A stretch of DNA of 64,000 nt from contig CAWDLW010000020.1 of NCBI GenBank assembly GCA_963803145.1, positions 96,001 to 160,000 on the forward strand. The letters are read 5' to 3'. How positions within the stretch are numbered: position 1 is the stretch's first letter; each line of letters starts with the position of its first letter. Below the pieces are notes generated by a model. The model saw only the letters and a program-made list of their open reading frames with translations. It was not told the DNA's origin and searched no databases. This DNA comes from Methanotrichaceae archaeon (GTDB lineage: Archaea; Halobacteriota; Methanosarcinia; Methanotrichales; Methanotrichaceae). This document shows, in pieces, positions 11,140 to 56,694 of the stretch. The translations under genes were made by a program, and so were the position numbers.

Positions 11140-11146
11140 TTGAAGA

Positions 11147-36541: not shown

Positions 36542-36942
36542 TTAACATTACCTCCATTCAAGATCGACTCTAGTTTTTAGGCTGAGTCATCTTGGGACTA
36601 TCTCTATTTCCAATGATATAAAAAGGTATAGCTGAAGGAGCTATAAATCGAATCAGAACGATAGCCGTTAATTTATCTTATAAAGTCTCCTTCTCTGAGA
36701 AAGCCTCTCTAGATAAGTTAGACAATAGTCAAAATAGTCTTGATGCTTTAAGATTGATCGAGTACGACTTTGGAGAGACGGATGAGGTGTGTAGGACCGT
36801 TGAGATGAGGGTGATAGGATTGGTTGGAGAACGCTAGATCACGCTAGATGATAATACTTTCGCCCCTGGCACAATTTCCATTATTCATTCTAGTAACTAG
36901 CAAGGAAAAAAGATCCACTGTAATACGGCATAGAGACTGTTT

Positions 36943-37473
36943 CTACTTAATAGATGATAAATCCATCTCTACAGCCATATCATATGCCTCAACAGCGTCT
37001 TCATGTAACCCCAGCTGATCCAATGATTCGCCTTTTCCATACCACGGCAAAGCCCATTTTGGATTCATGGCAATAGCTATATCATATGCTTCAATAGATT
37101 CGTTATACCTTCCTTGATCAAAAAGAGTTTCTCCCTCGCCATACCAAGCTTTTGCGAGTTTGGAATCTAGAGTAGCAGCCGTATTATATGCCGCCATCGC
37201 CTCATCGTATTTTTCCATCTTGCGGAGGGCATTGCCTTTATGATCCCATGCTTCTGCATAGGATTGATCAAGCTCTATGGCCTGATCGTAGGCATAGACG
37301 GCCTCCTCATATCTGCTCATATTATAAAGAACATCACCTTTATTAAACCATTCTAAGGGATTTGGGTCACTTGGAGCGGAAACGTTCTCGTTAGTCAAGC
37401 TACATGCAATTCCAATTTCAATTGTCATGAAAGCTATTAATATGACTATCGGCTTCAGTGATAATTCTATCAT
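36943..37473 (-). CDS. Exported tetratricopeptide repeat protein
   Basis: Four TPRs (W.NKG..L....RYEEA...YD.A); hydrophobic N-terminus. Confidence 0.9.
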   Translation of the reverse strand: MIELSLKPIVILIAFMTIEIGIACSLTNENVSAPSDPNPLEWFNKGDVLYNMSRYEEAVYAYDQAIELDQSYAEAWDHKGNALRKMEKYDEAMAAYNTAATLDSKLAKAWYGEGETLFDQGRYNESIEAYDIAIAMNPKWALPWYGKGESLDQLGLHEDAVEAYDMAVEMDLSSIK

Positions 37474-37491
37474 TATCTCACCCCTTTAGAC

Positions 37492-38145
37492 TTACTCAAT
37501 ACGAATGAATTGTCGAGACGGAGATGGCTTATCCCCTCGGATAAATATTCCTAAATGATACTGCTTTTCGTCGTATAACGGCGCTGTTCCCCCAGGGTTA
37601 TGCCAGCGTTCTAGGAATTCATTGCGTGGAATGAATCCTCTACTCCCCAATGTATATGGGTCTTCAAGGTAAACATTATTTTCATCAATTCCTATAACAA
37701 CCATGTAATGACCATCATACCAATCATCGGTCCAAGACTTATTCGAATATGAACTACCTCTCCATGATTGGCAATCTATTATCACAGGGACGCCCTCATT
37801 GATGGACTTTTCAAGATCCTCAAGAGTAATGTTATCCTTAATCTCGGCTTCAAGACCCATCTGCTGAGCCACTCTTACAATATCTCTTTCGTCTGTTCCA
37901 AAATCTGGGCTTGTGTTGAGCAGAGCCATTAATTCATCCTCCTCAATATCTATACCCCAATAATCCAGCACCGCCTGAAGGGCTGTTGCTCCGCAAGAGT
38001 AGTTTGCGCTCTGCCGTGTATCTGGTACATGAAATAGAATATTATTCGATGTCTCTTCAATTGGCGCCTCATTAATGCCGCATGCTTCAATGGCACCTAA
38101 GATGAATATTAAGAATATTATCATAAACAGCAAATTTTCCCTCAT
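37492..38145 (-). CDS. Exported C39-family cysteine peptidase
   Basis: QSANYSCGATAL (Gln/Cys), GHYMVVIGID (His), LEDP (Asp). Confidence 0.88.
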   Translation of the reverse strand: MRENLLFMIIFLIFILGAIEACGINEAPIEETSNNILFHVPDTRQSANYSCGATALQAVLDYWGIDIEEDELMALLNTSPDFGTDERDIVRVAQQMGLEAEIKDNITLEDLEKSINEGVPVIIDCQSWRGSSYSNKSWTDDWYDGHYMVVIGIDENNVYLEDPYTLGSRGFIPRNEFLERWHNPGGTAPLYDEKQYHLGIFIRGDKPSPSRQFIRIE

Positions 38146-41412: not shown

Positions 41413-42588
41413 TTAGGTTTGCTTTCTCTTCAGAAGCCTCGCCTGGAAGCCGTGATACTTGGCAAAGCCCTCTGCATCGCGCTGGCTCAGCGTTTGGGAG
41501 TCGAAGGAGACCATATCCTGCGCATAGAGTGCATCAGGCGATTTTCTGCCTACAGGTGTCGCGCATCCGGCATAAAGCTTCATCCTGACTGAGCCGTTCA
41601 CACGCTTCTGGCTATGGTCGATGAAGGCGTTCAGGTCTGGAAACAGAGGATCGTCAACAAGCCCCATGTAAGCCAGCTCTGACCAAGTCTCATCAACGAC
41701 TGACTTGAACCTGAGCTCCTGCCTGGAGAGTACCAGATGCTCTAGGTCATTGTGAGCTGTGAGAAGTATCGTCGCAGCGGGATGCTCATAATTCTCGCGA
41801 GCCTTTAGGCCAAGAACTCTATCCTCGACCATATCTGTCCTTCCGATGCCGTGCTCGCCCCCGATCTGATTGAGCTTTGTTATCAGTTCGATTCCATCCA
41901 TCTTCGCCCCGTCGATGGAGACTGGCACGCCCTTCTCAAATCCTATCTCGATAACCAGGGCAGGCTTATTTGCATCAGGCTTCTTTGACCAGCTATAGAT
42001 CTCCTCAGGCGGCTCAAAGTAGGGATCCTCAAGCCTTCCGCCCTCAATGGACCTGGACCAGAGGTTTTCATCTATCGACCATGGCTTGTCTTTCGTGACA
42101 GGCACATCTATTCCGTGCTCCCGCGCATAATTGATCTCCCATTCGCGCGCGAGATCAAGCTCTCTCATAGGCGCGATTACGCGACAGCTTGTGCACCTGA
42201 AGACCTCTTCGAACCTTAGCTGATCGTTTCCGCGCCCTGTGCAGCCATGCGCCAATGCATTTATTCCTTCCTTCTCGGCGATCTCGACGGCCTTTGAGGC
42301 TATCAGCGGCCTGGCTATTGCAGTTCCCAGAACATAACCCTCGTAAGATCCATTTGCCTTAATCAATGGAAAGAGGTAATTCTCGACGAACTCTTTCCTG
42401 GCATCTATAACATAATGCTTATCGGCAAGCTGCTTCGCGCGGTTGTTTCCCCGTTCAATATCAGCTCCGGGCTGGCCGACATCAACAAGAACAGTTATGA
42501 CTTTATCAAATCCATAACGCTCCCTCAGAAGCGGTATGCAGACGGATGTATCGAGGCCTCCCGAATAGGCCAATACAACTTCACTCAA
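41413..42588 (-). CDS. argG: Argininosuccinate synthase
   Basis: [56 protein letters not shown]; likely TTG start at 42588. Confidence 0.97.
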
Positions 42589-42689
42589 ACGTATATCACC
42601 GCTCCCGTACAATAAGCCATGCAAATTTAATGTTATCTCTTCTTTTGGGCGATAACTCTATAACTGCCGCGGAAAAAAATGATGCCATA

Positions 42690-43790
42690 ATGACGCAGCT
42701 AATTTCGACTGCCGCTCTTAACGTAGACTTTGACCCTGATAGCCATAGGCTCAATGCCCATGGAGCTCTGGCTCTAATGGTCCAGCCAGTCCTAAACAAG
42801 ATCAACCAGAGGCTATCTGAGGAAAAGCCTGCCATGGTCAGATTGAAGGATATAGTTGCCACTACCTGGCTTCCGCCTATACCTAGCGGCCCTTTCAAGA
42901 GGTTGGTACTCAATGAGGCTCGATTTGCTATCGGGAGGCCTGTCCCTCAAACAGTCTCCATTGAGGCGACACGCCTTTGCGGCTGCGCATGCGATCACTG
43001 TCTGATCAAAGATGGCGTGGGAGAGCTAAGCAAAGAGCAGATTCTTGGCGTTATAGATGAGGCACTAGATCTGGGAGCCTGTATCATAACCTTTACAGAA
43101 GGCGACCCGCTGCTGCGTGAGGATATCTTTGAGATCATCAAGCATGTCGATCCTGAGAAGGCTGTTGTTAACCTCTTTACTCCTGGTCTCGAAATGACTA
43201 TCGAGAAGGCAGTGAAACTCAAGGAGGCCGGCCTTTACAACCTAATAATAGGAGTATATAGTCCGGATGCTGCGGAGCATGATAAGATAAGGGGTCTGGA
43301 TGGAGCTTATGCAAAGGCAATCGATGCAATAAAGATGGCTCTTGATGCAGACCTGATGGTGACGATGTCGACCCACGTGAAAGCTGGCGATGTGGAAAAG
43401 ATACCCTTGCTTTACAAGCTTGCATCCGACCTGGGTGTTCATGAACTATCGGTCTGGGAGGGCATACCAAAATCTCCTGAGGAGCAGCTCACCCAGATAG
43501 AGCGCGAGAAGATAATTGACATCTACAGGAGGATTAATTCCACACCTGGCGGGCCTCGTATCTTCGCTAGTACCTACTTTGAGGGCCAGATGCTGGGCTG
43601 CATGGCCGGGCGGAGATGGATGCATGTAGGTGTAGACGGCAATGTCAGAGCATGCCCTTACCTGAATGAAAGCTATGGAAATATTCTAGATAGCCCTCTC
43701 AAGGATATTTGGAAAGCCTTGAGGGACTGCGGAGAGTTCAATAATTTCACCTGCAGCTGTCCAGCTCAAAATCTATTTGGCCAGGTTTGA
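42690..43790 (+). CDS. Radical SAM protein with SPASM/twitch C-terminal domain
   Basis: CGCACDHC (CxxxCxxC), FTEGDPLLR, GCMAGRR...GNVRACPY...GNI; likely start at 42690. Confidence 0.88.
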   Translation: MTQLISTAALNVDFDPDSHRLNAHGALALMVQPVLNKINQRLSEEKPAMVRLKDIVATTWLPPIPSGPFKRLVLNEARFAIGRPVPQTVSIEATRLCGCACDHCLIKDGVGELSKEQILGVIDEALDLGACIITFTEGDPLLREDIFEIIKHVDPEKAVVNLFTPGLEMTIEKAVKLKEAGLYNLIIGVYSPDAAEHDKIRGLDGAYAKAIDAIKMALDADLMVTMSTHVKAGDVEKIPLLYKLASDLGVHELSVWEGIPKSPEEQLTQIEREKIIDIYRRINSTPGGPRIFASTYFEGQMLGCMAGRRWMHVGVDGNVRACPYLNESYGNILDSPLKDIWKALRDCGEFNNFTCSCPAQNLFGQV

Positions 43791-43976
43791 TTATCCCTCA
43801 TCTTTATTTTGCATTGTAATCTATAAGGCAGTGCTTATTTTGGAAATACTCAATCAATAAGTTCTAAAAGAGTACAAAATGTCTTTTTGTTCGGGGTCTA
43901 TCCTACATAAATCCCTCAATAAAAGTTACGGAAAATTATTAGTACAGATAGGGCTTTATGCGTTCTGAGGTAGGAT

Positions 43977-44615
43977 ATGGGATTGATCAGCAGCCTAAGA
44001 GAAAGCTTTGGAGGCTGGATAAATAAAATATTTAAAAAGAAGAGGGCAAAGATAGGAATATATGGCCCGCCAAATGCTGGCAAAACCACCCTTGCCAATA
44101 GGATAGTCAAGGACTGGAGCGACGGCGAGATCATGGGTATAGTCTCGCCGATACCACATGAGACGCGCAGGGCTATTAGACGCGAAGGTGTATTGATAAA
44201 ATCTAATGGCTCAAGCATAGAGCTCGATATAGTCGATACCCCAGGAATGGCTACTAAGATCGACTTTAAGGAGTTCATGGCCCATGGCCTAGCTGAACCT
44301 GAAGCAAAAAAGAGGGCCAAAGAGGCAACAGAGGGCGTAATCGAAGCCATCAAATGGTTGGATGACCTAGACGGTGTGCTTCTAGTAATGGATTCCACTG
44401 AGGACCCCTACACACAGGTCAATGTCACAGTTATAGGAAATATGGAGGCAAGAGGGCTACCGCTTCTCATCGTTGCAAATAAGAATGACCTACCGGATGC
44501 ATCGCCTTCCAGGATAAAATCGGCCTTCCCGCAGCATCCCGTAGTGCAGATCTCGGCTCTTGACGGATCGAATATCGATGGACTTTATCAGGCGATAGCA
44601 GCTCATTTCGGGTGA
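43977..44615 (+). CDS. oapA: Era-like archaeal GTPase (OapA-type)
   Basis: [27 protein letters not shown]; followed by DUF2073 and Zn-ribbon genes. Confidence 0.88.
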
Positions 44616-44619
44616 TTTT

Positions 44620-44979
44620 ATGAGAGAATTACAGATGGATCTGATCTCCGGAGAAAAGCTGGAGAGGATGACCTCCATGGAGAAGATTAGGCTTATCCTT
44701 GATAAGGTCAAAACCGGCAGGATAGTTGTTCTGGAGAGCGGGCTCACCCCTGATGAGGAGGTGCGCTTGATTGAGATGACAATGAGCGAGATCCGCTTAG
44801 ATGAGTTCTCGGGAATAGAGATTGAAAGCTATCCTGTCAAGAGGGAGAACTCCTTCTTCAACAAGCTTCTTGGGAAAAACGTGAAGGGCAGGATGACAGT
44901 GATAGGGCCTGCAAACCAGCTAAGGACTATTGAAAAGAATCAGTATCAGATCAGCACTAAGTTATCTGTAGGAGATTAG
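44620..44979 (+). CDS. oapB: DUF2073 family protein (OapB-type)
   Basis: MEKIRLILD.V..G.IVVLE.GLTPDEE..LIE.TM, FSGIEIESYP, TVIGPAN. Confidence 0.88.
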   Translation: MRELQMDLISGEKLERMTSMEKIRLILDKVKTGRIVVLESGLTPDEEVRLIEMTMSEIRLDEFSGIEIESYPVKRENSFFNKLLGKNVKGRMTVIGPANQLRTIEKNQYQISTKLSVGD

Positions 44980-45579
44980 ATGCCCCACATATGTACCCGT
45001 TGCAATAATATCTTCGATTCCGGCGAGGACATATTGAGGGGATGTCCTGTCTGCGGCTGGAAGAAGTTCATGTTCGTTAAAAAAGTCCAGCATGAGGGGA
45101 AGCAGCATGCAGAGCAGGTTATAAACAAGTCTATGGGTGTCAGAAGGCCTCCCAAAAGGTCGATTAAAGAGCGATCGGTGGAGGGAGCAGAGGAGAGATC
45201 GGTGGAAGAATCTGTGGAGAACTCAGTGAAAGAGATCAAAGTGGGCACAGGAGAGTTAGCACAATCTGCTCATGAAAGACCACAGTCTTCTCATGAAAGA
45301 TTACAATCTGCTCACGAAAAACCACCAGTAAAACCTGTAGTAAAACCTGTGCGTGCCAAAATTGATGATAAGATTGCCGATACGACTACCCAAGACAAAA
45401 ATACCACACCATCCCCGCAGATAAATGATAAGCTAGAAAGCATAAAAATTACTGCGCCAGGAACATATGAGCTGAATCTGCCATCGCTCTTTGAAAGGGA
45501 CGAGCTGATCATGGCAGTGAAGGAAGGAACTTACTTTATAGATCTATCCTCAGCCTTCAGAAAGGGCAAGAAGGAATGA
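44980..45579 (+). CDS. oapC: Zn-ribbon protein DUF2072 (OapC-type) with low-complexity linker
   Basis: MPHICTRC...GCPVCGWKKF; ESIKI.APGTYELNL; EGTYFIDL. Confidence 0.88.
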   Translation: MPHICTRCNNIFDSGEDILRGCPVCGWKKFMFVKKVQHEGKQHAEQVINKSMGVRRPPKRSIKERSVEGAEERSVEESVENSVKEIKVGTGELAQSAHERPQSSHERLQSAHEKPPVKPVVKPVRAKIDDKIADTTTQDKNTTPSPQINDKLESIKITAPGTYELNLPSLFERDELIMAVKEGTYFIDLSSAFRKGKKE

Positions 45580-45778: not shown

Positions 45779-46186
45779 TTATGCCCCGCCAAATATAGCT
45801 ATTGGAGGAGTATAGACTGTGCTATTTGCCGATATCGCCAGGGGCAGGGTGAAGACAGTGTTCGCCTGGGAGGTGATATTCTGATTCTTTATGGAAAACA
45901 TGGGGGTAATCGTCACTGGAGACGGTCCTGTTATAATTACTGGCGAAGCGGTTGATTCGACTGTAGGCTTTCCAAGGGTACTGAGATCGGAGACCGATGG
46001 AGTCGTATTTTCTCCAAGGTGGGTAGCAGGAACGCTAGCCATGCTTTGAGAGATCACTGGAATAGTTATAGTACCCAGATTATTCTTTCCTAGAGTGCTG
46101 AGATCCAGCACGTTATCTGCGCCAGCTGCAATCAGCACGCCTGCTAGAAGCATCGTGACAACGATGATCGTGAGAGTTACTTTCAT
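45779..46186 (-). CDS. Secreted Thr/Pro/Ser-rich protein
   Basis: Signal peptide; duplicated DLSTLGK motif; GGAGG RBS. Confidence 0.75.
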   Translation of the reverse strand: MKVTLTIIVVTMLLAGVLIAAGADNVLDLSTLGKNNLGTITIPVISQSMASVPATHLGENTTPSVSDLSTLGKPTVESTASPVIITGPSPVTITPMFSIKNQNITSQANTVFTLPLAISANSTVYTPPIAIFGGA

Positions 46187-46597: not shown

Positions 46598-47215
46598 TTA
46601 GTAATTTGGGGGTACAGATGTTTGCGGTGTCTGTGATGGGACTGTCCCCTGTGTTGATGGCGGCATCTGGCCTGCTGCTGCGACTACTTGGATACTGCTC
46701 AATATACCTTGTGTCACACTCTCAGGATAGGTTGATGTTATATCCACGAGCATCGTGCCAACAGAAACAGGGCCGCATTCACAATTGCTGCTGTCCAGCC
46801 AGTATTGTGCCTGGTAGAATTGTAGCCCAGAGGGTACACCCATGCCGAATGGCAATCCAGAGATAAGGAAGCCATTCTTGCCATCTATAACCTGCTCTTC
46901 AGCTGCAGTAGTGTTAATTCCTCTTAATGCCATACGAAGGGCCGTAATTTCCTCGCTCACCTGCAGAGTGGAATCTGTGAGGTTATTGTACTGTGTTATA
47001 CTTATTGAAGCGCCGGTCATATTATCAGTTACTATCACTATCGGATATATCGTGGCAAAAGGATAAACTGCTGGATTCGGCGTTTGAATCTGGTAGTTCA
47101 TGTTTGTGTTCATATTGAAGGATACCGTATAAGGTCCTGTCTGGCGTGTCTCAGTGGCGGCTAAAGACAGGGAAGACAGCATTAGAACTAATGCTATCGC
47201 AATTATTAATCTCAT
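46598..47215 (-). CDS. Secreted hypothetical protein
   Basis: Signal peptide; GPYTVSF, IDGKNG, YWLDS..CECGPVSVG, STYP. Confidence 0.8.
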   Translation of the reverse strand: MRLIIAIALVLMLSSLSLAATETRQTGPYTVSFNMNTNMNYQIQTPNPAVYPFATIYPIVIVTDNMTGASISITQYNNLTDSTLQVSEEITALRMALRGINTTAAEEQVIDGKNGFLISGLPFGMGVPSGLQFYQAQYWLDSSNCECGPVSVGTMLVDITSTYPESVTQGILSSIQVVAAAGQMPPSTQGTVPSQTPQTSVPPNY

Positions 47216-47217
47216 TT

Positions 47218-48009
47218 TTAATAACCTCCTGTAGATGGATTACCCAATGGTTGACTACTCGTTTGCTGGGCTATTGGCTGAGTATAGCCTGGCTGCTGAT
47301 AGGCGGTCTGCTGACTTGACAGCGGATTATAGGCAGCCACATTGGCAACAACATCGATATCTATAGCGTTGCTCAGCTGGCTGCCTATTGAGAATAGCAG
47401 TATATGTTGCCCTATTGTATCTGCATAGAAACTTATTTGGCTCGATCCCGGGTAGAAATAGTAGTAGTTCTTTATCAGCTGGCCATCTGGACGTATCTCA
47501 TAAAGGTATCCGCTGCCGCCTATGGGAGTGATTGCCAAAATGGTTAAGGATGAACCCTGGGGGACTGTTGCATACTGGGTCCAGCTGGTAGTCCCTTCTA
47601 TCCATAGAGAATTGCCTCCTGTGTACGTAGAATAGGTCTGGTATTGAGAGTATGGCACCGCCTGTGTCTGACCTACAAAATAGAGGCTTGATGGTGCATT
47701 GCCGCTGATTGCATATCTCTGAGGTGCAGTGATATGAGTAATCGGAGCAGCTCCTATGGGCATCCTATAGTACTGAGAATAGTCTATTGAGAAGAATTTT
47801 TGGAATCCGTAGGATTGATTAACGTTAGGATATTGGCCAAAGGGAATGCTTGAGGGATGAGTGCCGATAGGAGAATAGTACGGTCCTGTTACATATACTG
47901 GCCCAGAGCTGAGCCAATCTTGAGGAGATCCTAGATCCCAAAGCTGACTAGAGGCGGATCCCATCAGAAGGCTCAAAAGAAGAGCCAATAGGCATAATTG
48001 CTTTGTCAT
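47218..48009 (-). CDS. Secreted hypothetical protein (paralogue of 17809-18639)
   Basis: Signal peptide from MTKQ; NSLWIEGTTSWTQYATVPQGS; FYADTIGQH. Confidence 0.8.
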   Translation of the reverse strand: MTKQLCLLALLLSLLMGSASSQLWDLGSPQDWLSSGPVYVTGPYYSPIGTHPSSIPFGQYPNVNQSYGFQKFFSIDYSQYYRMPIGAAPITHITAPQRYAISGNAPSSLYFVGQTQAVPYSQYQTYSTYTGGNSLWIEGTTSWTQYATVPQGSSLTILAITPIGGSGYLYEIRPDGQLIKNYYYFYPGSSQISFYADTIGQHILLFSIGSQLSNAIDIDVVANVAAYNPLSSQQTAYQQPGYTQPIAQQTSSQPLGNPSTGGY

Positions 48010-48143
48010 AATCTTTTCACCATAATAAGACATGCTTCAAAAAATTTAAAACTATCTCACATTGCGTACTTTTTAGTTTTTAGTAAAATAGCAGGGGAAT
48101 GCAGAAGCATATCTGCATCCCTTGACGGCACTTACTCAATGCC

Positions 48144-49244
48144 CTATGAAGCGCTGGATCCTGTTGGAGCCGCCGATCCTGTGGGGCATCCCCTTGTACA
48201 GCGACTGCTTGTTGGACAACTTGAGCCGGAACAACACGTCGAACCCGTTACGCATGTAGATCCTGTCGGACAGCTTGCACGAGTTGTGCAACCCGCACCG
48301 GTTACACAGCGTCCGCCCGTTACGCATCCGCTAGAGGATGGACAACAGGAGTTGGTTGAACAGCCTGTGCCTGTTGGACAAGCACTATTTGTTGCGCAAT
48401 AACTGCAGGTTGTACAGCCACTGCCGGTTGGACAAGCACTGCTAGTTAGGCAATAGTTGCAGGTTGTACATCCGGTGCCGGTTGGACAAGCACTATTTGT
48501 TGCGCAATAACTGCAGGTCGTACATCCGGTGCCGGTTGGACAAGCACTGCTAGTTAGGCAATAGTTGCAGGTTGTACATCCGGTGCCGGTTGGACAAGCA
48601 CTATTTGTTGCGCAATAATTGCAGGTCGTACAGCTACTGCCTGTTGGACAAGCACTGCTGGTTAGGCAATAGCTGCATGTTGTACATCCGCTGCCGGTTG
48701 GACAAGCACTATTTGTTGCGCAATAATTGCAGGTTGTACATCCGGTGCCTGTTGGACAAGCACTGCTAGTTAGGCAATAGTTGCAGGTTGTACATCCGCT
48801 GCCTGTCACGCAGCCAGTAGTTGTGGGACAGTAAGAGTTGGTGTTACAGTTGCAGCCGGTTGGACAGCTACCTCCGCTTGGGCAGCCAGTACCTGTAAGG
48901 CAGCTTGCACCTGTTGGGCAGCCAGTGCCTGTGGGACAGTTCGTGCCTGTCGGGCAATTGCAGCCCGTTGTACAGCCGGTTGTCGGACAGCCGGAGCCAG
49001 ATGGACATAATGAGCCACTAGCACAATCGCCGCCAGTCGGACATGTTGATCCAGATGCACAGTTACAGCCTGTAGTGCAGCCTGCGCCTGTAGGACAGGT
49101 CGAACCTGTCGGACAATTACAGCCGGTAGGACATCCTGCGCCTGTTAAGCTGTTGGCCTGTACGGCTTGTACCCCCTCATCTGCATGTACGCTGCCGATC
49201 AATAGCAAAGAGAGGACTATCAACAGCACTAAAGTAGTTTTCAT
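48144..49244 (-). CDS. Secreted Cys-hexapeptide repeat protein A (about 54 C-x-[T/S]-x-x-x units)
   Basis: Signal peptide MKTTLVLL..SVHA; GGAGGAG RBS; 8 central 18-aa units CTTC[NS]Y-C[LA]T[SN]SA-CPTG[TS][GS]. Confidence 0.88.
   Translation of the reverse strand: MKTTLVLLIVLSLLLIGSVHADEGVQAVQANSLTGAGCPTGCNCPTGSTCPTGAGCTTGCNCASGSTCPTGGDCASGSLCPSGSGCPTTGCTTGCNCPTGTNCPTGTGCPTGASCLTGTGCPSGGSCPTGCNCNTNSYCPTTTGCVTGSGCTTCNYCLTSSACPTGTGCTTCNYCATNSACPTGSGCTTCSYCLTSSACPTGSSCTTCNYCATNSACPTGTGCTTCNYCLTSSACPTGTGCTTCSYCATNSACPTGTGCTTCNYCLTSSACPTGSGCTTCSYCATNSACPTGTGCSTNSCCPSSSGCVTGGRCVTGAGCTTRASCPTGSTCVTGSTCCSGSSCPTSSRCTRGCPTGSAAPTGSSAS
48370..48800. repeat. Coding tandem repeat, 54-bp unit (108-bp super-unit), about 8 copies
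   Basis: Recurring GTTGGACAAGCACT..., alternating GCTAGTTAGGCAATAG and ATTTGTTGCGCAATAA. Confidence 0.9.
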
Positions 49245-49660
49245 ATTCTCCTCCAACACTATTTTTAAAAGATGTCTCTTGTGGCATTTTAATAAGTATA
49301 TAGGAATAAATTGTTCTGATTGCTCATTATTATTATGCGTACCTTGTAGAAGTACGTAATCATCTTAGCTAATTTTTTTCATAGTTTTCTCGACATGCTG
49401 ATCTATTTAAATGCTTAATACGTGAATTATAGACAAAAATTTACTATAAATTCTGATGAACATACCAGTAAGCATATTAAGATGAGTTTCAGAATCTATT
49501 AACCCACTTCATATCGATACTTTATAAATACATAAAATACAACAATTAGCGGAAAATAAGATAGAATGTTCTTAGACAAGGGTTTCTTGCGCGAGCTATA
49601 TCCTTTTCCAGGCTTGAGTTTGATGGTTGTTAAAAAGATACCGATATAAAATTTATCGGC

Positions 49661-49691
49661 GAACTCGGCTAGTTATAGGCCAGCCGAGTTC
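49661..49691 (-). terminator. Stem-loop just 3' of the membrane-protein operon
   Basis: GAACTCGGCT / AGCCGAGTTC perfect 10-bp stem, 11 bp after the stop of 49703-51784. Confidence 0.5.
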
Positions 49692-49702
49692 CCGATTTTA
49701 AA

Positions 49703-51784
49703 TTAAGTAAATGTTTTGCCTGTTGTATTCCCGTTGTCTACGATTACATCACGCAGATTATCCACTTTGCAGCTGAGCTTTACCCACTCCGCAGGAGGAT
49801 CTGATATGATCACGGCGATCATATTCCGCTTGAAATATTTGTCCATCAGCTTTTCCAGATCGAACATGCCCGAGAGATAATCCTCTTGATAGCTTGCATC
49901 GCCGCTTAATATAGCAATCACTGGTTCGCCTTTGAGCTCGGGGAACTGAGTTGTATAGTGCGCTAGTGGGTAGGATAAGTTGAAGGATATCAGGAAGAGT
50001 ATAGATAATATCACCAATGCTCCAAATGGGTTTCTGCGGTTGATGACTACTACGACTAATCCGATAGCTACCAGCAGTATGAGTACAAGTGTTTTATCGA
50101 TCTTATCTACACTTGATAAGTACTCTATCATGCCGATAGACATCTGAGCATGGTCTCCGAAGCCTACAACGCCATTGTTGAATTGTGTGCTGTCTGTGAA
50201 CATGATAACATTGCCAGCTCCATACTTGGTTCCGACTATTACAAGATGCTTATCAAAGAGCGAGTTCATCTTTACTTCATCTGGAAACTCTCGGCTTAAG
50301 AAGAACGGAGCCGTCTCATTACGGAAATGGCCAAAGAAGCTGGGCCTGGTTGTAATCTCAAATAGGGAGCTTCCATTCAGCCTTTCGATGCTGTTGCTAG
50401 TCTCCCACCCAAGGTCACCAGTCATGTATCGGGTAATTATCGGTGGAAATTCTCCATCTTGCGTTATAGACCCACTAGTATCTGTGTATGTATCCTGAAC
50501 ACCCGTTGCCATGAACTTATATCCTATTCTCTCGGCAATCGGATTGAGATTAGTGCACATTCCATAGATATCTGTATGTTCGCTAACTAGGAAGAGGCTG
50601 TTGCCTCTGGCTGTAAAGTTAAGTATAGCATCAACCTCTGACTTCGTGTAAGGTCTGGTCACGCATTTTAGCACAAGTATAGCTTTTTGTCCCCGAGATA
50701 TATTTTCCAAAGCATCGAGTGTGATATCAGGAACCAGAGATGCACTAACAGAACTTACAGCAGGCGCCTTGCTAGGCTTATCTATTATTAGGGTAACATT
50801 ATATAAGCTTGCAAGTATATCAAGCCACCCAAAGTAATTGTTGGTGCCGCTCACAGGATCCTTTTCGTACGTTTTAATGTAATCAGGCCAGGTAGGCTCC
50901 CATTCGCTGTGGGCTTCATCTATTATTATTTTTGGGTCCGATCTGACTGTCATCGGAGTGTAGTACAATAGCCCCAAGAGTAAGAATATTATCAATAGCG
51001 GTGCAGTTATCTTCTTTGATGTAAAAGTGCCCGCCTGTATTTTTTTGATCTTGGCGCCGGGAATCACCAGGCTCACGAGCAGAATGGATGCCAGGGGAAT
51101 AGCCAAAGCCGGCAGATTATCAAGGACGAAATTAGCTGGCGATGGATTATACAGAAAATTCTGCAGGTTAAGGATTGTGAAGATAAAAGGAACAGCAGCC
51201 ACTGCAAATGCAGACTTCACGGTGATCTTTCGATCCTCATCCAGGATTGCCAATAGCACCAACTCTGCGACCAGCAAGGCAACAAAGAACGGCAGAAGAA
51301 GCTTCACATCATCGAGTAGTATAGGCAGTTTGGTCCTGGTATGATAAAGCAGAAGGTAACCTACATCGTTTATCTCATACCTTATTCCAAATAGAGGTGA
51401 TATATCCCTAAGAACTGCGTACAGTCCATTAAGCAGGAGTTTAGTATCCGCAAACTGGAGTACTAAAACGCCTGCAAGGGAGGGAAGGAAAGTCTCAACC
51501 TTGGCATTGATCGCTATCAGACAGAATATCAAGACGACGATCAGAGGAATATAGGTGTTATTGACTAGGCCCTTTACGAAGAAGATGGAGACTGGTATTG
51601 CCAGCGCAAATGCAACCAGGTCACCTTTTCCTGGGGTATGATCTCTGAATGCGACCAGGAGAAGAAGGATGGAGGCCGCTGCCACTATGAATGTGGAGTA
51701 CTCCCAGTAATAAAACGACATTATATAGCTTCCCAAGAGGAGAAGCCCTGTCGCAAATCCGGTTACTTTGGATTCAAAGTCCAT
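49703..51784 (-). CDS. Multi-pass membrane protein with one DUF4350/GIFT (class I GATase-like) domain
   Basis: About 8 N-terminal TMs; IIIDEAHSEWEPT, LVLKCVTRPY..SEVDAILNF...GNSLFLVSEHTD, YGAGNVIMFTDST; 2 further TMs; start overlaps the upstream stop. Confidence 0.7.
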   Translation of the reverse strand: MDFESKVTGFATGLLLLGSYIMSFYYWEYSTFIVAAASILLLLVAFRDHTPGKGDLVAFALAIPVSIFFVKGLVNNTYIPLIVVLIFCLIAINAKVETFLPSLAGVLVLQFADTKLLLNGLYAVLRDISPLFGIRYEINDVGYLLLYHTRTKLPILLDDVKLLLPFFVALLVAELVLLAILDEDRKITVKSAFAVAAVPFIFTILNLQNFLYNPSPANFVLDNLPALAIPLASILLVSLVIPGAKIKKIQAGTFTSKKITAPLLIIFLLLGLLYYTPMTVRSDPKIIIDEAHSEWEPTWPDYIKTYEKDPVSGTNNYFGWLDILASLYNVTLIIDKPSKAPAVSSVSASLVPDITLDALENISRGQKAILVLKCVTRPYTKSEVDAILNFTARGNSLFLVSEHTDIYGMCTNLNPIAERIGYKFMATGVQDTYTDTSGSITQDGEFPPIITRYMTGDLGWETSNSIERLNGSSLFEITTRPSFFGHFRNETAPFFLSREFPDEVKMNSLFDKHLVIVGTKYGAGNVIMFTDSTQFNNGVVGFGDHAQMSIGMIEYLSSVDKIDKTLVLILLVAIGLVVVVINRRNPFGALVILSILFLISFNLSYPLAHYTTQFPELKGEPVIAILSGDASYQEDYLSGMFDLEKLMDKYFKRNMIAVIISDPPAEWVKLSCKVDNLRDVIVDNGNTTGKTFT

Positions 51785-53867
51785 TCTCTTCCCTCCCTCC
51801 AATGGATGTAAGCAGATTTTCAGTGAACTTCTTCAAGTTAGGATCTGGATAGCTAAACACCGGCTCATATTGTACGAAATTCTTGAATATCGTATGGTCA
51901 CCTACCACTACTATCTGTCCTTTCCCGATTTTCTTCACAGCCACGACGGGTGTATTGTTGTAAAGAGCAATTGGCGTTCCACCCATGACCTCAACTGCGG
52001 AATACATAGTGATGTTTCCATTAACGCTATCCATCAGAGGATTCTTTAGCGGTCTGACAGCTATCCTTGTCTCCTTCATGTAAGGCAGATGATAACCCCA
52101 TGTTGTGTAGTTGAAATAGCTGATATCTCCTAGAAGCGTCTCATTCAAAGACATGCCGAAGTTGTTGAGCAATGTGTTCACTGGATGGCCTGATTGGTCT
52201 GCAGAGATATCGGAATGGTATCCATCAAAGACTATCATAGTACCGCCGTTCTCTACGTAATTCAATAGATTTGTCCGCTCCTCTGTGCTGAAGGGATCGG
52301 TTGGGCCCATAGTCACATATGCCTTGTATTTCGATAAATCTTGAGGTACCTCTTTCACAAGAACGGGATTGAATCCATAGTGCTGTGCAAATATGGCGAC
52401 GAAGACATTCTTGTACTGATGTGGATCTCCATAGCCCTCGATGTTTGCATGTCCAACATCAAGCGCAATTACATTTGTCGGCTCCCATGTCACAGGAACG
52501 GCGGCCTGGACCTGAAGCAGAAGAAGAATAAGAGATACTGAAACGATCAAAGGCACTATTGTATATAGGCGTGCTCTGAATATGCCTAAAGCTGCCAGAA
52601 GAGCCAAAGGTACAACGAGCCAGATGTTTCTCAGGACGCTGTTCTCATGGTTGAGATAACTCATGACCTTTCCCAAAAAAACATAGTTGTACATCAAATT
52701 GGGACCGCTCATAGAATCGGAGTTGGCTATTGCCAGTACTCTTCCTTTGCCATAGTTTACAGCTGCGCATATTGGAAGAACTCCAAAGTCCTCATTGCTC
52801 TCAGGCGCAACATCCCCCAAATAGGCATGGTTCTCTGCTGCCCAATCGCCTAGATCGGCCCATGTTGTGTACTTGAGCGCATAAAATATCAGTCCATCGG
52901 ATCTATTAACCCTTAGAGTTGCTCCTGCGGTCTCCTCTGTGCTGTCAAAGCCAGAAAGGCTTGCGAAATGAGGCTCCCAGAGCATGCTATAGTCGAAGTT
53001 AAGGTGAAGCCCAAAGGTTTCCAGTATGGGATTGAGGTCTATATAGCAGTCCATTATGTTTGTATGATCTCCCAGCACAAACAGACCGCCGCCGTTTCTT
53101 ACGAAGTCTGTGATATACTCGATCTCCTGGGGGCTGTACTTCTCCTCAGGGGTTTCCAGTACCAGAATGCTGACGTCTTTTAAAGATTCGGGAGATATTG
53201 TTGTGTTCAGAATAGTAGTCTCATAACCTACTGTATTCAGATATCTGAGAGTGGAATGAGTTATTGTATCGTTCTCAAAGAATGCCGAGTCGAGCTTATG
53301 ATGGTATCCGTCGTATGCGATCTTGCCTGTCTTTATCTGGCCTAATGGATCGATCGGAGATAAGCTGATCAAGAGCAGTATCATCGATACATACAGAGCC
53401 GCTTTTGTTATGGGCTTAACCTGTACCTTGGATGCATCTCCCAGATCGTAGACGCTCGCAACAACAAAGAATGCAAATGTGATCAGAAGGGTTATCCAAG
53501 TATTCAGTGCGAGACCTAAGCCCTCAACCATTGCTATAGGCAGCAAGATAAATGTGGTCTTTAGCAGATGCTCATTCCTGTAGAAGTAATATATTACTGC
53601 TAGCATTAGGAAGATGTAAGGCGTAGGGTTTCTCAATAGAAATGGTATGAAGAACATTATGATGCCGAGTGGCCTAGCCTTCTCGAACCTCTTCCATGAG
53701 AAGAAGATGAGTAGAGATAGCCCTGACACTAGGCTGACAACATACATTGGCGTCATCAGCTTAAAGACGGAATGTATAATCCCTGACTCCCAACATATAA
53801 AGAAAAGAAGAGGTAAGTAGGGAATGTAATCTCTGGCCCTGGCTGGCGCCTTTGATTCGCTGCTCAT
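51774..53867 (-). CDS. Multi-pass membrane protein with two DUF4350/GIFT (class I GATase-like) domains
   Basis: About 6 TMs; IAYDGYHH, P...YS..E...I..FVRNGGGLFVLGDHTN, YGKGRV; TM pair; second domain ALDVGHAN, YVENGGTMIV, GKGQIVVVGD. Confidence 0.75.
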   Translation of the reverse strand: MSSESKAPARARDYIPYLPLLFFICWESGIIHSVFKLMTPMYVVSLVSGLSLLIFFSWKRFEKARPLGIIMFFIPFLLRNPTPYIFLMLAVIYYFYRNEHLLKTTFILLPIAMVEGLGLALNTWITLLITFAFFVVASVYDLGDASKVQVKPITKAALYVSMILLLISLSPIDPLGQIKTGKIAYDGYHHKLDSAFFENDTITHSTLRYLNTVGYETTILNTTISPESLKDVSILVLETPEEKYSPQEIEYITDFVRNGGGLFVLGDHTNIMDCYIDLNPILETFGLHLNFDYSMLWEPHFASLSGFDSTEETAGATLRVNRSDGLIFYALKYTTWADLGDWAAENHAYLGDVAPESNEDFGVLPICAAVNYGKGRVLAIANSDSMSGPNLMYNYVFLGKVMSYLNHENSVLRNIWLVVPLALLAALGIFRARLYTIVPLIVSVSLILLLLQVQAAVPVTWEPTNVIALDVGHANIEGYGDPHQYKNVFVAIFAQHYGFNPVLVKEVPQDLSKYKAYVTMGPTDPFSTEERTNLLNYVENGGTMIVFDGYHSDISADQSGHPVNTLLNNFGMSLNETLLGDISYFNYTTWGYHLPYMKETRIAVRPLKNPLMDSVNGNITMYSAVEVMGGTPIALYNNTPVVAVKKIGKGQIVVVGDHTIFKNFVQYEPVFSYPDPNLKKFTENLLTSIGGREENGL

Positions 53868-53895
53868 TGTTGGATCTCTTCCCCTAAATCGTTGC

Positions 53896-54651
53896 TTATA
53901 TACGCTCTTTAATCTTCGATGCTAAGCTTGGCAGCTTCTTCCTATAGCCCAGAAGCAGCGCAGCAACGACTATTATCAGTGCACTAGCTCCAATCTTGAA
54001 CATATTGTCTGTGAGCGACATTGCAGCATTGTAGTAGTTGTAATTCGCCCTGAATACGATATCAGTCTCGTTTCCTGTCTTGGCGGCACTCCAGAGTAGG
54101 GCGTCTCTGCCGGAGATAACGACTCTCTTAAAGGGATCTGTTGAGTTTCCAATGGTCACTACTGAGGTGCCTATTTTGGCATCCGCTGGAGGAATAACCA
54201 CAACACTTGCGCCCTGAGGCTCGCCCACATTCACACTTGTATAGAGCGTATTTCTCTCGCCAATCCTTGTCAAAAGCCCATTCCAGGTGAAGGATAGATT
54301 GAACTTATATGGCTTTCCAACCTGGTAGCCGGCGAGAAGCATGGATATGGTCCGCTCACCGCCAGCCTCGTTAACATCGGCATCAATCGTTTGACCCAAT
54401 GAGTCCTCTGCCGTGTAATCCTTCGTCTCTCCACCTCGGAAAGAGAAAGTATAAAGGATGCTCGGCTCCTTGGGTATGATAGTGCTTGACCAGGTGCATC
54501 TGACGCTCCCATCGGCATTTATATCATATATATAGCTATGATCTACAGGATCAAAGGCAATCTTCTGGTGAGATGCTGTATTCTGGGCAGATGCGGAGCC
54601 GAAAGCTGCTAGATATATTAACAGTAGAGAGAGAGTAGCAGCTTTGGCCAT
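53896..54651 (-). CDS. Exported beta-rich protein with C-terminal membrane anchor
   Basis: Start MAKAAT with GGAGG RBS; signal peptide; C-terminal hydrophobic helix followed by YRKK basic tail. Confidence 0.75.
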   Translation of the reverse strand: MAKAATLSLLLIYLAAFGSASAQNTASHQKIAFDPVDHSYIYDINADGSVRCTWSSTIIPKEPSILYTFSFRGGETKDYTAEDSLGQTIDADVNEAGGERTISMLLAGYQVGKPYKFNLSFTWNGLLTRIGERNTLYTSVNVGEPQGASVVVIPPADAKIGTSVVTIGNSTDPFKRVVISGRDALLWSAAKTGNETDIVFRANYNYYNAAMSLTDNMFKIGASALIIVVAALLLGYRKKLPSLASKIKERI

Positions 54652-55004
54652 CTGTAAACCTCCATATTGTAACACAATTAACTCTCCGAATAATCTTATT
54701 ATCATAAGATATCGTATTTCGAACATATATTAAGCTAGCGGTTAATATTTAAGTAAAAATTGAGCTACCGATATCTAATATACACTAAGCATTCTAGTGA
54801 AGTTACTGAGTTACTAACCGTATCTATATCTGTTACAAAAGATAGTACAGGTTTATCTATAAATACGTAGGAACAAAACATTCGTATTGAAAATCTTTAC
54901 CATTGGTTCTGTATTCGGTTATGACCTCATTAGAGCTCGAAAAGTGACCTAATACACAAAAATTTGTCTGTTTAAAAAATATTGGGCGCTAGCGACCTAG
55001 CAGC

Positions 55005-56195
55005 CTAAGAAGATGATGCTGACGTCGGGCAGAGCTTTTCTGACGGGCAACTGCTGCCGGTTGGACATCTTGAGCCTGTTGGGCAGTTATGGCTTGTTAC
55101 CGTCTCCGCTGAGCTTATGCATCTACCGCTGCTTGGGCAACTGCTGGTGCTCGGGCAGTTACGGCTTGTCACACAACCACTATCTGTTGGGCAGACAGCA
55201 TTAGTTGTGCAGCCTGTTCCAGTTGGACAATTACAACTGGTCACACAGCCACCACTTGTCGGGCAAACTGAATTGGTCGTGCAGCCTGTTCCAGTCGGAC
55301 AATCGTCGCTGGTTGTACAGCCACTGCCTGTCGGGCAGCCTTCACCACTTATACAGCCTGTTCCAGTCGGACAATCATCAGTAGTTGCACAGCCACTACC
55401 TGTTGTGCAGCCTTCGCCGCTTATACAGCCTGTTCCTGTCGGACAGTCATCACTGGTCATACAGCCACTACCTGTCGGGCAACCTGCACCACTTATACAG
55501 CCGGTTCCTGTCGGACAATCATCAGTGGTTGCACAGCCACTACCTGTCGGGCAGCCTTCACCACTTATACAGCCTGTTCCAGTCGGACAATCATCGCTGG
55601 TCATACATCCGCTACCAGTTGGACAGCCTTCACCACTTATACAACCGGTTCCTGTTGGACAATCGCTGCTGGTTGCACAGCCACTACCTGTCGTGCAGCC
55701 TGAACCAGTTATACAGCTTGTTCCAGTCGGACATGTGGCCCCTGTTGGGCGGAAAGATGTTGTTAAGCATCCAGAGCATGTCGGACAGAATGAATTGGTC
55801 ACGCAGGTCGTTTCGCTCGGGCATACCGTATTGGTCGAGCAGCCTGAACCTGTTGGGCAAGTTGATCCTGTTGTGCAACCTACACCAGTTGGGCAGCCGC
55901 TACCCGTTGGGCAAACAGACCCTGTTGCACAGCTACAGCCAGTTGAGCAGCCTGCGCCTGTCATACATAGGCCTCCAGTTGGGCAACCAGCGCCTGTTGC
56001 GCACCCGCTGCCAGTCGGACAGGCTGCACTGGTTGTACAACCGCTACCTGTCGGGCAACCTGCACCAGTCGGTGTACAGGCACCAGTCGGGCTATCAACA
56101 CAATTGGCCGTTATAGCCGATGTATCCACAGCTAATGCGTTGCCTGAAAAAATAATCAAAGCTATGGCTACCAAAAATACCGCTACGTACCTCAT
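55005..56195 (-). CDS. Secreted Cys-hexapeptide repeat protein B (about 59 units)
   Basis: Signal peptide MRYVAVF..NALA; central 24-aa units CPTGTG-CISG[EA]G-C[PT]TGSG-C[MAT]T[ST]DD. Confidence 0.88.
   Translation of the reverse strand: MRYVAVFLVAIALIIFSGNALAVDTSAITANCVDSPTGACTPTGAGCPTGSGCTTSAACPTGSGCATGAGCPTGGLCMTGAGCSTGCSCATGSVCPTGSGCPTGVGCTTGSTCPTGSGCSTNTVCPSETTCVTNSFCPTCSGCLTTSFRPTGATCPTGTSCITGSGCTTGSGCATSSDCPTGTGCISGEGCPTGSGCMTSDDCPTGTGCISGEGCPTGSGCATTDDCPTGTGCISGAGCPTGSGCMTSDDCPTGTGCISGEGCTTGSGCATTDDCPTGTGCISGEGCPTGSGCTTSDDCPTGTGCTTNSVCPTSGGCVTSCNCPTGTGCTTNAVCPTDSGCVTSRNCPSTSSCPSSGRCISSAETVTSHNCPTGSRCPTGSSCPSEKLCPTSASSS
55290..55720. repeat. Coding tandem repeat, 72-bp unit, about 5-6 copies
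   Basis: Recurring CCACTTATACAGCCTGTTCC(A/T)GTCGGACAATCATC at 72-bp spacing. Confidence 0.85.
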
Positions 56196-56694
56196 GTTCT
56201 CCTCTCGTGCAATTTTGAGAAAAACATGGGCAGCTTTTATAATAAAGATGTAGGAAAATAGTATACTAACAGCGCGTCATAAGCGGATATACAATGCAAA
56301 GATACGTATGTGTTGTGATCAAAAGCCAAAGAGCAGCATAAACCCATATAAAATATGATTGAATGCTTTGTGATTTCTAGGATATAGTTCATAATACGAT
56401 AATAATATGTAATCCCCATGCCAATCTGCAAAAGGCCTTGAGTCCATAATCATATATCCAAGGGTTTAGGATATTATATTGTAACTTATATTGTAACTCC
56501 ATACGGATATATCTCTAATATTGTAGATATGAACCGAAAATTTTTTACCCATGGACATATAAGTATTTAGGTTAGCTCGGAAGCCGAATATCTCAAAAGG
56601 ATGAGACTGCAGTACTATCTGGGAATTTCTACATGCTTATCAGTTGTGCTGATAGCACATAGAAACTATTAGAATAAATTGTGGTGGTGAAATA

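Follow-up and report, generated by a model that had tools for sequence, protein, structure and literature searches.

Polytopic GIFT-domain membrane proteins and secreted cysteine-periodic repeat proteins co-occur in Methanotrichaceae and other archaea: a candidate extracytoplasmic handling machine and its clients

A 64,000-nucleotide stretch of a Methanotrichaceae archaeon assembly (contig CAWDLW010000020.1, forward-strand positions 96,001–160,000; hereafter the window) encodes a minus-strand cassette in which an exported, C-terminally anchored protein and two polytopic membrane proteins, Mem1 and Mem2, lie between two secreted proteins built almost entirely from a six-residue cysteine repeat (the hexad proteins). 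The three central genes (the trio, which defines a type I locus) and the hexad genes co-occur almost perfectly across genomes, and the genomic link between them is strong. We propose, with a probability of about 0.55, that the trio is a dedicated extracytoplasmic machine that handles, by maturation, assembly or anchoring, Sec-exported low-complexity proteins with periodic Cys and Thr residues. The composition of the system matches no described system, in line with the first-pass annotation of this DNA, which recognised no named system in it: Pfam, NCBIfam and the PDB are blank for the repeat and anchored proteins, and the literature searched holds no description.

Close relatives of the encoded proteins carry the names Methanotrichaceae or Methanothrix. 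The cassette lies on contig C20 of a 4.13-Mb, 51-contig assembly (G000), with the five genes of the first-pass annotation all present in the list of open reading frames (ORFs) and co-oriented on the minus strand. Read in the order of transcription, the upstream hexad protein (396 aa, 55005–56195) is followed by the anchored protein (53896–54651; 251 aa from a likely ATG at 54651, the ORF reaching 54726), by Mem1 (51774–53867; 697 aa) with two GIFT-type domains, and by Mem2 (49703–51784; 693 aa from a likely ATG at 51784, with a TTG at 51802) with one GIFT domain. The start of Mem2 had been said to overlap the stop of Mem1, and from the likely ATG this overlap measures 11 nt. Just 3′ of the Mem2 stop, the stem-loop reported earlier proves to be two hairpins on the minus strand (~49693–49630), the second with a T-run and terminator-like, and an AT-rich spacer of ~440 nt leads to the downstream hexad protein (48144–49244; 366 aa from a probable ATG at 49244 behind a GGAGGAG site, within an ORF of 48144–49259). 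The run of eight co-oriented minus-strand genes across 45.8–56.2 kb of the window ends with genes for three more secreted proteins (271, 205 and 135 aa).

Both hexad proteins carry a Sec-type signal peptide and continue almost solely as C-x-[T/S]-x-x-x, as first described, with 50 of the 60 successive Cys–Cys gaps of the upstream protein (61 Cys) and 37 of the 67 gaps of the downstream protein (68 Cys) measuring exactly six residues. In 20,000 shuffles the mean number of such gaps was 4.07 and 4.43 respectively, with a maximum of 13. Position 3 is T or S in every perfect hexad (50/50 upstream and 37/37 downstream, 87/87 in total), position 2 is mostly P (about half of hexads) and position 4 mostly G, giving a consensus of C-P-T-G-x-G, and Cys accounts for 15–18% of residues. 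A higher-order unit of 24 residues is present in the upstream protein, the gene of which contains tandem DNA repeats of 72/144/216 nt, and one of 18 residues in the downstream protein, where the extra Cys of the unit gives rise to eight CxxCxxCx5CP units.

Differences between repeat copies number 10/16/82 at codon positions 1/2/3 of the upstream gene and 18/48/84 in the downstream gene, counted in the minus-strand frame, with 69 synonymous and 22 non-synonymous codon differences in the upstream gene. As these differences fall mostly at the third codon position, the minus-strand hexad frames are coding sequences, and they are under purifying selection; the long plus-strand ORFs antisense to the repeats (55117–56253 and 48838–49359, both with P-V-G-Q-type repeats) are by-products of the repeats. 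The Cys and Thr columns are invariant across hexad orthologues of 43–59% identity, the lengths of which vary strongly in repeat number, from 120 to at least 499 aa.

The hexad proteins match no Pfam family (E up to 0.1, Hexapep included) and no NCBIfam family, with the downstream protein scoring 17.5 bits against Myxo_Cys_RPT (TIGR04201), below the threshold of 25. Searching the PDB by sequence gave insignificant matches to the Tenebrio antifreeze protein 1ezg (E 2.1) and a hexapeptide transferase (E 0.6), and a match to a gamma-carbonic-anhydrase-like chain (E 0.0019) that spans Gly-rich stretches only and is likewise counted as insignificant. AlphaFold2 modelling from a 9-sequence alignment yielded a mean predicted local distance difference test score (pLDDT) of 36.0, with no fold and no secondary structure beyond the signal peptide. 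A homologue search with the upstream protein returned none at E 1e-10 among 8000 scored candidates, which is uninformative for a low-complexity query.

The period of these proteins has structural precedents. The Tenebrio antifreeze protein (1EZG) is a disulfide-stapled beta-helix of 12-residue coils with Cys at every sixth residue and adjoining Thr/Ser, and the hexad proteins share this six-residue period, with the insignificant sequence match given above and no confident model. The 18- and 24-residue super-repeats are similarly reminiscent of the hexapeptide left-handed beta-helix, with no Pfam Hexapep match and neither strands nor helix in the AlphaFold2 model.

About eight hexad genes are present in the 4.13 Mb of the genome, two beside the trio and about six, and thus most of them, elsewhere. 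Two long hexad proteins (705 aa at G000:C15:247343-249460 and 978 aa at G000:C49:6387-9323) end in a globular domain of ~250 aa that matches DUF6612 weakly (E 3.6e-4, below cut-off), an architecture that recurs in other trio-bearing genomes. At G000:C18:16844-20537, two hexad genes stand in tandem, and the sole DUF5803 gene of the genome lies ~1 kb upstream of them. A 219-aa open frame at G000:C23:83260-83916 is made of an 18-nt tandem repeat whose six-residue unit contains one Cys, with 33 of 33 gaps equal to six. It has no start or signal peptide, and is probably repeat DNA that codes for nothing and has no relation to the hexad family. In a Bathyarchaeota metagenome-assembled genome (MAG), the trio-adjacent hexad protein (L022:5003-5401) ends with a hydrophobic segment and a K/R tail, so that at least some of the putative clients are membrane-anchored.

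Loci related to the cassette were collected from a scan of one genome per species and from a separate metagenome scan. The former returned ten orthologous loci, seven in Methanotrichaceae and one each in a Methanospirareceae, a Bathyarchaeota and a Thermoproteota MAG, with the order anchored protein–Mem1–Mem2 kept in all ten and hence in four archaeal lineages; an eleventh genome locus holds a distant pair. The metagenome scan returned 17 type I and 9 distant loci, and with one of the former (L147) lying on the same contig as a genome locus (L023) and counted once with it, 26 distinct type I loci result. Six of these are too short to tell; of the 20 that are informative, 16 have a signal-peptide hexad-Cys gene as the immediate neighbour of the trio. 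These counts derive from a rescan of all ORFs, as longer antisense ORFs can displace the repeat genes in ORF picking (e.g. L137 and L138). The recurrence of Cys-periodic signal-peptide ORFs beside homologues of the membrane pair had been set beforehand, in the first-pass annotation, as a refutation test, and the outcome supports the association. We estimate chance adjacency at roughly one locus in a hundred, from about eight hexad genes in 4.13 Mb. Some loci are near-identical (e.g. L018/L139 and L142–L144), and the independent cases of adjacency are therefore fewer than 16. The layout of a machine placed between two substrates, proposed at the outset, stands at this locus and fails as a general rule, with most loci having one repeat gene on one side.

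Presence and absence across genomes follow the same pattern. Among 105 Methanotrichales genomes, Mem1 occurs in 8 and hexad proteins in 9, the latter being the same 8 together with G002, a genome of the same genus that has no trio. The G002 copy (L059:7832-8176, G002:C1) is a 114-aa hexad ORF without a signal peptide, its position is syntenic with the intact C18 hexad pair of the genome studied here, and it looks like a decaying remnant; it is the sole exception to the absence of repeat proteins from related genomes without the pair, an absence on which the original proposal had also been staked. In the largest genus, Mem1 is found in 3 of 59 genomes and hexad proteins in the identical three, and in a 401-genome sample of the phylum the Mem1 and hexad queries each match the identical two genomes. 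Hexad ORFs are likewise present in the trio-bearing Bathyarchaeota and Thermoproteota MAGs, in one case on another contig, and the genome with only a distant pair has none. Hexad proteins are present in all 11 trio-bearing genomes examined, and the family is kept in three phyla.

Mem1 matches the Pfam families ABC_transp_aux (PF09822, 69.3 bits against a cut-off of 34.7), IFT52_GIFT (PF23355, 61.3 against 27.2) and DUF4350 (PF14258, 53.5 against 30.4), with the GIFT-type matches occurring twice over, as two domains; PF27016 is also listed among the domains of Mem1 relatives. The AlphaFold2 model of Mem1 (mean pLDDT 81.3) comprises an N-terminal polytopic part (~15–168), GIFT domain 1 (178–410), a segment at ~413–458 in which a long hydrophobic helix with an R-A-R turn is read as a transmembrane hairpin, and GIFT domain 2 (462–695). 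In VIA-align comparisons, residues 465–693 align with IFT52 (5fms_A; Z 19.4, root-mean-square deviation 3.2 over 200 residues) and GIFT domain 1 (178–416) with human OST48 (6s7o_G; Z 16.1, root-mean-square deviation 3.1 over 200 residues), with a further match of Mem1 to the glutamine amidotransferase (GATase)-like domain of site-1 protease (Z 15.4). Foldseek agrees with the GIFT fold matches, and a PDB profile search recovers IFT52 at E 2.4e-9, so that Pfam and fold comparison both bear out the GIFT/GATase-like assignment originally made from the sequence alone.

Mem2 consists of a larger polytopic domain (~30–290), a single GIFT domain (~290–565), a transmembrane hairpin and an 84-aa tail. 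Its DUF4350 match of 21.9 bits lies below the cut-off of 30.4, and it is homologous to Mem1 and to the paralogues described below (BLASTP E 2e-7 to 1e-24). The polytopic domain of each membrane protein has 6–8 helices, and the distribution of K/R residues in the loops, taken together with the AlphaFold2 helices, predicts that the N-terminus of Mem1 lies inside and its GIFT domains outside. A [D/E]-H-T motif occupies the position of the GATase nucleophile elbow, with the H and T invariant in all four subfamilies and little else kept. A catalytic Cys-His triad in the GIFT domain was considered and dropped, C274 being invariant among Mem1 orthologues and not across subfamilies.

The anchored protein has a signal-like N-terminus, an ectodomain of ~190 aa, a C-terminal transmembrane segment and a basic tail. 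It has no match in the PDB, Pfam or NCBIfam, and its 83 relatives are all named hypothetical, none with a Pfam domain. Two atlas leads remained unconfirmed: for DUF5803 (0.86), hhalign against the one DUF5803 protein of the genome gave a probability of 2%, and for Ribophorin_I (0.85), Pfam matched 1 of 21 members at E 0.2, with no PDB match. PF04597 was not found in the genome, and the cassette contains no AglB gene.

Two further adjacent pairs of GIFT membrane proteins, of ~860 aa each, are encoded in the same genome (G000:C20:4857-11209, locus L057, and G000:C43:27677-34482, locus L058). Each of these type II pairs has next to it a secreted Cys-every-fourth protein of its own, with a gap of four in 43 of 50 cases for one and in 31 of 52 for the other. 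The type II pair occurs in 17 of the 105 Methanotrichales genomes; of 15 of its loci examined in the order, 11 have a Cys-every-fourth gene next to the pair, the exceptions being L115, which has full flanks, and three short contigs. Type II partners share a conserved N-terminal region of ~40 residues behind a hydrophobic N-terminus, beginning [ST]PL[YF]xxR. As a regular expression this signature matches 9 of the 11 adjacent type II partners and the partners at 9 of 10 distant loci, and only three ORFs of the genome studied here carry it behind a hydrophobic N-terminus, two of them the type II partners. Type I clients are without this motif, and the anchored protein is confined to type I, of which the pattern suggests it may be the adaptor. 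At the distant metagenome loci L156–L158 (e.g. L157:6832-7278), the two membrane genes enclose a gene for a 148-aa CxGSxx-hexad protein that bears the N-terminal motif. Complex prediction with the GIFT ectodomains of the C43 pair (m1 306–566, m2 323–878) and partner residues 28–112 scored 0.00 (mark 0.32), and counts neither way.

The neighbours of type I and type II loci are otherwise unrelated housekeeping genes that differ between loci, with no ATPase, transporter family, glycosyltransferase, radical S-adenosylmethionine (SAM) or other enzyme kept beside either type. The conserved module is therefore the membrane pair, with or without the adaptor, and a secreted client, and such a module, with its clients dispersed around the genome, is what genomes show where a dedicated machine processes or sorts many substrates. 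The arrangement of one machine and many dispersed clients resembles that of sortases and exosortases in logic, not in ancestry. In sortase, exosortase and archaeosortase systems, machine and clients likewise co-occur genome by genome, with some clients adjacent and most elsewhere, and the type II partners likewise possess a short signature beside a hydrophobic segment, although at the N-terminus and not the C-terminus. There is, however, no sequence or fold relation between these enzymes and the Mem proteins, and no conserved Cys/Arg/His set in the polytopic domains.

In the mechanism that we favour, the anchored protein and the two polytopic GIFT proteins would form one membrane complex with three GIFT domains facing outward. 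A repeat protein would be exported unfolded via Sec, whereupon the outward GIFT domains and the anchored protein would capture the repeat chain and hold it while its regularly spaced thiols are fixed, through disulfide or other cross-links or through metal or metal-sulfide binding, and the product would then be placed on the cell surface or sheath. A capture-and-hold role is favoured because GIFT is a non-catalytic scaffold fold in IFT52 and OST48. Candidate chemistries are disulfide ladders, thioethers, O-glycans on the invariant Thr/Ser, and binding of metals or metal sulfides, for which free thiols in a sulfidic, anoxic habitat would be avid ligands. An N-glycosylation-like sequon with Cys in place of Asn was considered and dropped, Pro being commonest at hexad position 2. 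Complex formation by the trio, its physical contact with the repeat proteins, the action of machine on client and the nature of the chemistry are what we infer from the genomic pattern, and each of these is conditional.

A far bolder extension, which we regard as a long shot, would make types I and II the first two subtypes of an unrecognised archaeal extracytoplasmic system for protein maturation and sorting, resting on paired polytopic GIFT-domain proteins, with CPTG-type hexads and an anchored adaptor as the signature of type I clients, and [ST]PL[YF]xxR with Cys-every-fourth repeats as that of type II. The products would in that case be thiol-lined extracellular filaments that bind metal or Fe-S, giving a conductive or redox-active surface.

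Several observations weigh against a handling machine. Four informative loci (L016, L017, L148 and L134, the last with only 1 kb downstream) have no adjacent hexad gene; elsewhere in the genomes of the first two (G003 and G004) there are 3 and 10 hexad matches, respectively. The related genomes are non-independent, the co-occurrence counts overstate their statistical weight, and no P value is attached to them. The system is patchy: just 8 of the order's 105 genomes carry the trio, which makes it an accessory trait outside core envelope biogenesis. To our knowledge GIFT domains have no enzymatic activity, and would be a maturation catalyst only if the [D/E]-H-T site is one, with the poor conservation of the polytopic domains between subfamilies speaking against a conserved membrane-embedded active site. 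As AlphaFold2 finds no fold in the hexads (pLDDT 36.0), an ordered, stapled product is without structural support. Nor, where the habitat is strictly anoxic, would disulfides be an obvious outcome outside the cell. Finally, the distant locus L151 encodes three tandem partners that bear the motif and are not Cys-rich, and Cys periodicity is therefore not obligatory in the wider family.

The chief rival, which we nonetheless consider unlikely, reverses the roles of the two components, with the Cys-repeat proteins capturing thiophilic metals or metal-sulfide clusters (Fe, Ni, Co, Zn, Cu), by analogy with hemophores or binding proteins that serve a transporter, and the GIFT pair acting as receptor or as uptake or detoxification channel. 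The high Cys content of the hexad proteins would stay reduced in an anoxic habitat, and the eight CxxCxxCx5CP units of the downstream protein recall the ferredoxin-type cluster motif. The 6–8-helix polytopic domains could form a pore, Pfam places the ectodomain in ABC_transp_aux, a GldG-type transporter accessory family, and the patchy distribution fits a niche trait. However, the polytopic domains match no Pfam or NCBIfam transporter family, and the pair has no conserved neighbour gene for an ATPase, permease family or metal regulator. Furthermore, the signals are of Sec and not Tat type, proteins of 370–990 aa are large for shuttles, and some family members, such as that of L022, are membrane-anchored.

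The two ectodomains of Mem1 share the fold of the GIFT proteins GldG, IFT52 and OST48/Wbp1, above Pfam cut-offs, and GldG also has an extracytoplasmic domain flanked by transmembrane segments, as in Mem1. Against the GldG equivalog TIGR03521, however, Mem1 scores 32.2 bits, with a cut-off of 389.85, and no ATP-binding cassette ATPase or permease, as would be expected of GldA/GldF-type partners, is found among the window ORFs of at least 110 aa scanned (31 + 11) or the type II neighbours scanned. In contrast to known GIFT proteins, the GIFT domains described here are fused to a polytopic domain of 6–8 helices and occur in heterologous pairs, and the known members have no link to Cys-repeat proteins, unlike the trio. 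Also among the closest known systems is the archaeal DUF4350 family arCOG01314, members of which have a signal peptide as well as one C-terminal transmembrane segment and lie in an operon with a von Willebrand factor A (vWA) protein and a MoxR AAA+ ATPase; Makarova et al. (2015, PMC5898192) predicted, solely from gene context, that it forms with secreted and S-layer-like proteins a new extracytoplasmic system for secretion or membrane remodelling. That system and the trio share an archaeal DUF4350/GldG-like ectodomain. Here, however, the proteins are polytopic and paired and have Cys-periodic partners, with no vWA or AAA+ match among the neighbours.

A second, rather improbable explanation holds that the hexad proteins form a variable, mucin-like surface coat with O-glycans on Thr/Ser, used for adhesion, sheath decoration or virus shielding, with the GIFT complex as an accessory in the manner of OST48/ribophorin in the eukaryotic oligosaccharyltransferase (OST). 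The OST48-like fold of GIFT domain 1 (Z 16.1), the invariant T/S of each hexad and the highly variable repeat number between orthologues would all suit such a coat. The Pro at position 2 of about half of the hexads, however, argues on general grounds against an OST-type sequon, no glycosyltransferase is kept in the loci, and the atlas lead to Ribophorin_I for the anchored protein (0.85), weak from the start, failed confirmation in both Pfam and the PDB. Trio-bearing lineages overlap those reported to have sheath proteins, which have an amyloid-like core of two six-stranded sheets, in a 2024 survey of archaeal sheaths that found no assembly factors from gene context (PMC11576556). The order is uniformly sheathed and only 8 of its 105 genomes have the trio, making a core sheath role unlikely.

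We attach still less weight to the proposal that the hexad Cys residues, with Thr/Ser, are enzymatically thioether-linked, as in CrpA/CrpC or the lanthipeptides, and that the membrane pair is only an exporter or scaffold for a product akin to the RiPPs, peptides synthesised on ribosomes and modified after translation. The strict C-x-[T/S] register, without exception in the perfect hexads, is what such a reading would lead one to expect, and a methanogen precedent exists: in Methanococcus voltae, thioethers (ranthionine cross-links) are installed on the Cys-repeat protein CrpA by the radical SAM/SPASM enzyme CrpC, according to a 2026 paper (PMC13692751). As described there, CrpA resembles the hexad proteins in being a large Cys-rich methanogen repeat protein with no family and no confident fold, encoded beside presumed processing genes, but it differs in its 17-residue repeat, leader-like N-terminus and cytoplasmic maturase. 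The hexad proteins have a six-residue period, cleavable Sec-type signal peptides and no CrpA-like leader, and none of the loci retains a radical SAM, LanB/C/M, YcaO or other maturase. The best match in the genome to the CrpC family model TIGR04463 (rSAM_vs_C_rich) lies on contig C30, which carries no hexad gene, and its 261 bits fall short of the cut-off of 525.

A radical SAM/SPASM gene does lie 2 kb beyond the cassette, on the opposite strand (42546–43790), yet its highest score is as AhbD/NirJ-like, far below cut-offs, and it is syntenic in the same genus only. Being outside the cassette, it leaves intact the earlier observation that no lanthipeptide, YcaO or radical SAM enzyme lies within; no lanthipeptide, YcaO or sactipeptide family was found among the five cassette and three downstream proteins, and none is conserved in related loci. 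The 148-aa partner of the distant loci weakly matches the Cys-every-fifth RiPP CefA (NF038108; E 0.049), its 13.5 bits falling below the cut-off of 30, just as the TIGR04201 score of the hexad protein falls below its own.

That the Cys-repeat ORFs are translated tandem DNA repeats and not genes, as the tandem repetition of both regions, the long ORFs open on both strands, the lack of database families and the absence of an AlphaFold2 fold might suggest, is already contradicted by the third-position bias and synonymous excess in the minus-strand frame, the signal peptides and Shine-Dalgarno-like sites, the invariant Cys/Thr columns and the retention of the family in three phyla.

Downstream of the second hexad gene, and preceded by a terminator-like hairpin (48121–48096), the secreted 271-aa protein (47218–48033, minus strand) is syntenic in the same-genus locus L015, and its C-terminal part resembles the C-terminal domain of a type II Cys-every-fourth partner (BLASTP E 1e-5 over 115 residues), a domain present in 82 of the 105 Methanotrichales genomes and often arranged in tandem clusters. 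Relatives of the secreted 205-aa protein (46598–47215, minus strand), with 30% identity (L116 and L117), are found immediately upstream of the type II membrane pairs of two other genomes. The secreted 135-aa protein (45779–46186, minus strand), the last of the co-oriented genes, is syntenic only in L015, and its membership of the cassette is uncertain. The GC content of the cassette (0.44–0.49) is the same as that of its surroundings, and the same flanking genes (cupin, glyoxalase-like and OapC) are found in relatives; there is therefore no sign of recent insertion, and a mobile island was rejected.

Elsewhere in the window, the radical SAM/SPASM gene adjoins genes for origin-associated proteins (GTPase, OapB and OapC; 42546–45579), and a replication origin may lie nearby. 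At 10561–12535, next after a secreted 192-aa protein comes one in which thioredoxin-like (AhpC/TSA, Redoxin) and DsbD-type membrane domains are fused, a candidate extracytoplasmic thiol-disulfide oxidoreductase ~36 kb from the Cys-repeat genes. Three adjoining genes at 35972–38145 encode a secreted 189-aa protein with 12 Cys, a tetratricopeptide repeat protein and a secreted C39-like cysteine peptidase. Transposase-like genes with an rve integrase core are present at 9310–10305 and 15545–16550, with the N-terminus of the latter recurring at G000:C20:2721-3218, beside a type II locus.

Ectodomains of the GIFT/DUF4350 kind occur widely in bacteria, archaea and eukaryotes, and we know of no established molecular role for them in prokaryotes. 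The association described here gives this orphan domain family a testable partner, an easily recognised client class tied to it by adjacency and co-occurrence. In the literature outside subscription journals, with the supplementary tables of PMC11576556 and PMC13692751 beyond the scope of the search, we found no link of DUF4350/GIFT to Cys-repeat proteins and no Cys-rich proteins of Methanothrix. The clients are themselves unusual, consisting of hundreds of residues of C-x-[T/S]-x-x-x, or of Cys at every fourth residue, secreted by strict anaerobes, and the finding bears on the construction and decoration of the envelope and sheath in Methanothrix-type cells (PMC11576556). It also touches on metal interaction and extracellular electron uptake without multihaem cytochromes in such cells (PMC10470525), and if the bolder extension were true, the filaments could serve extracellular electron exchange in cytochrome-free relatives of Methanothrix. 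A structural role, too, would establish a new logic of machine plus client in archaeal surface biogenesis, and the system would supply annotation rules for thousands of ‘hypothetical’ genes.

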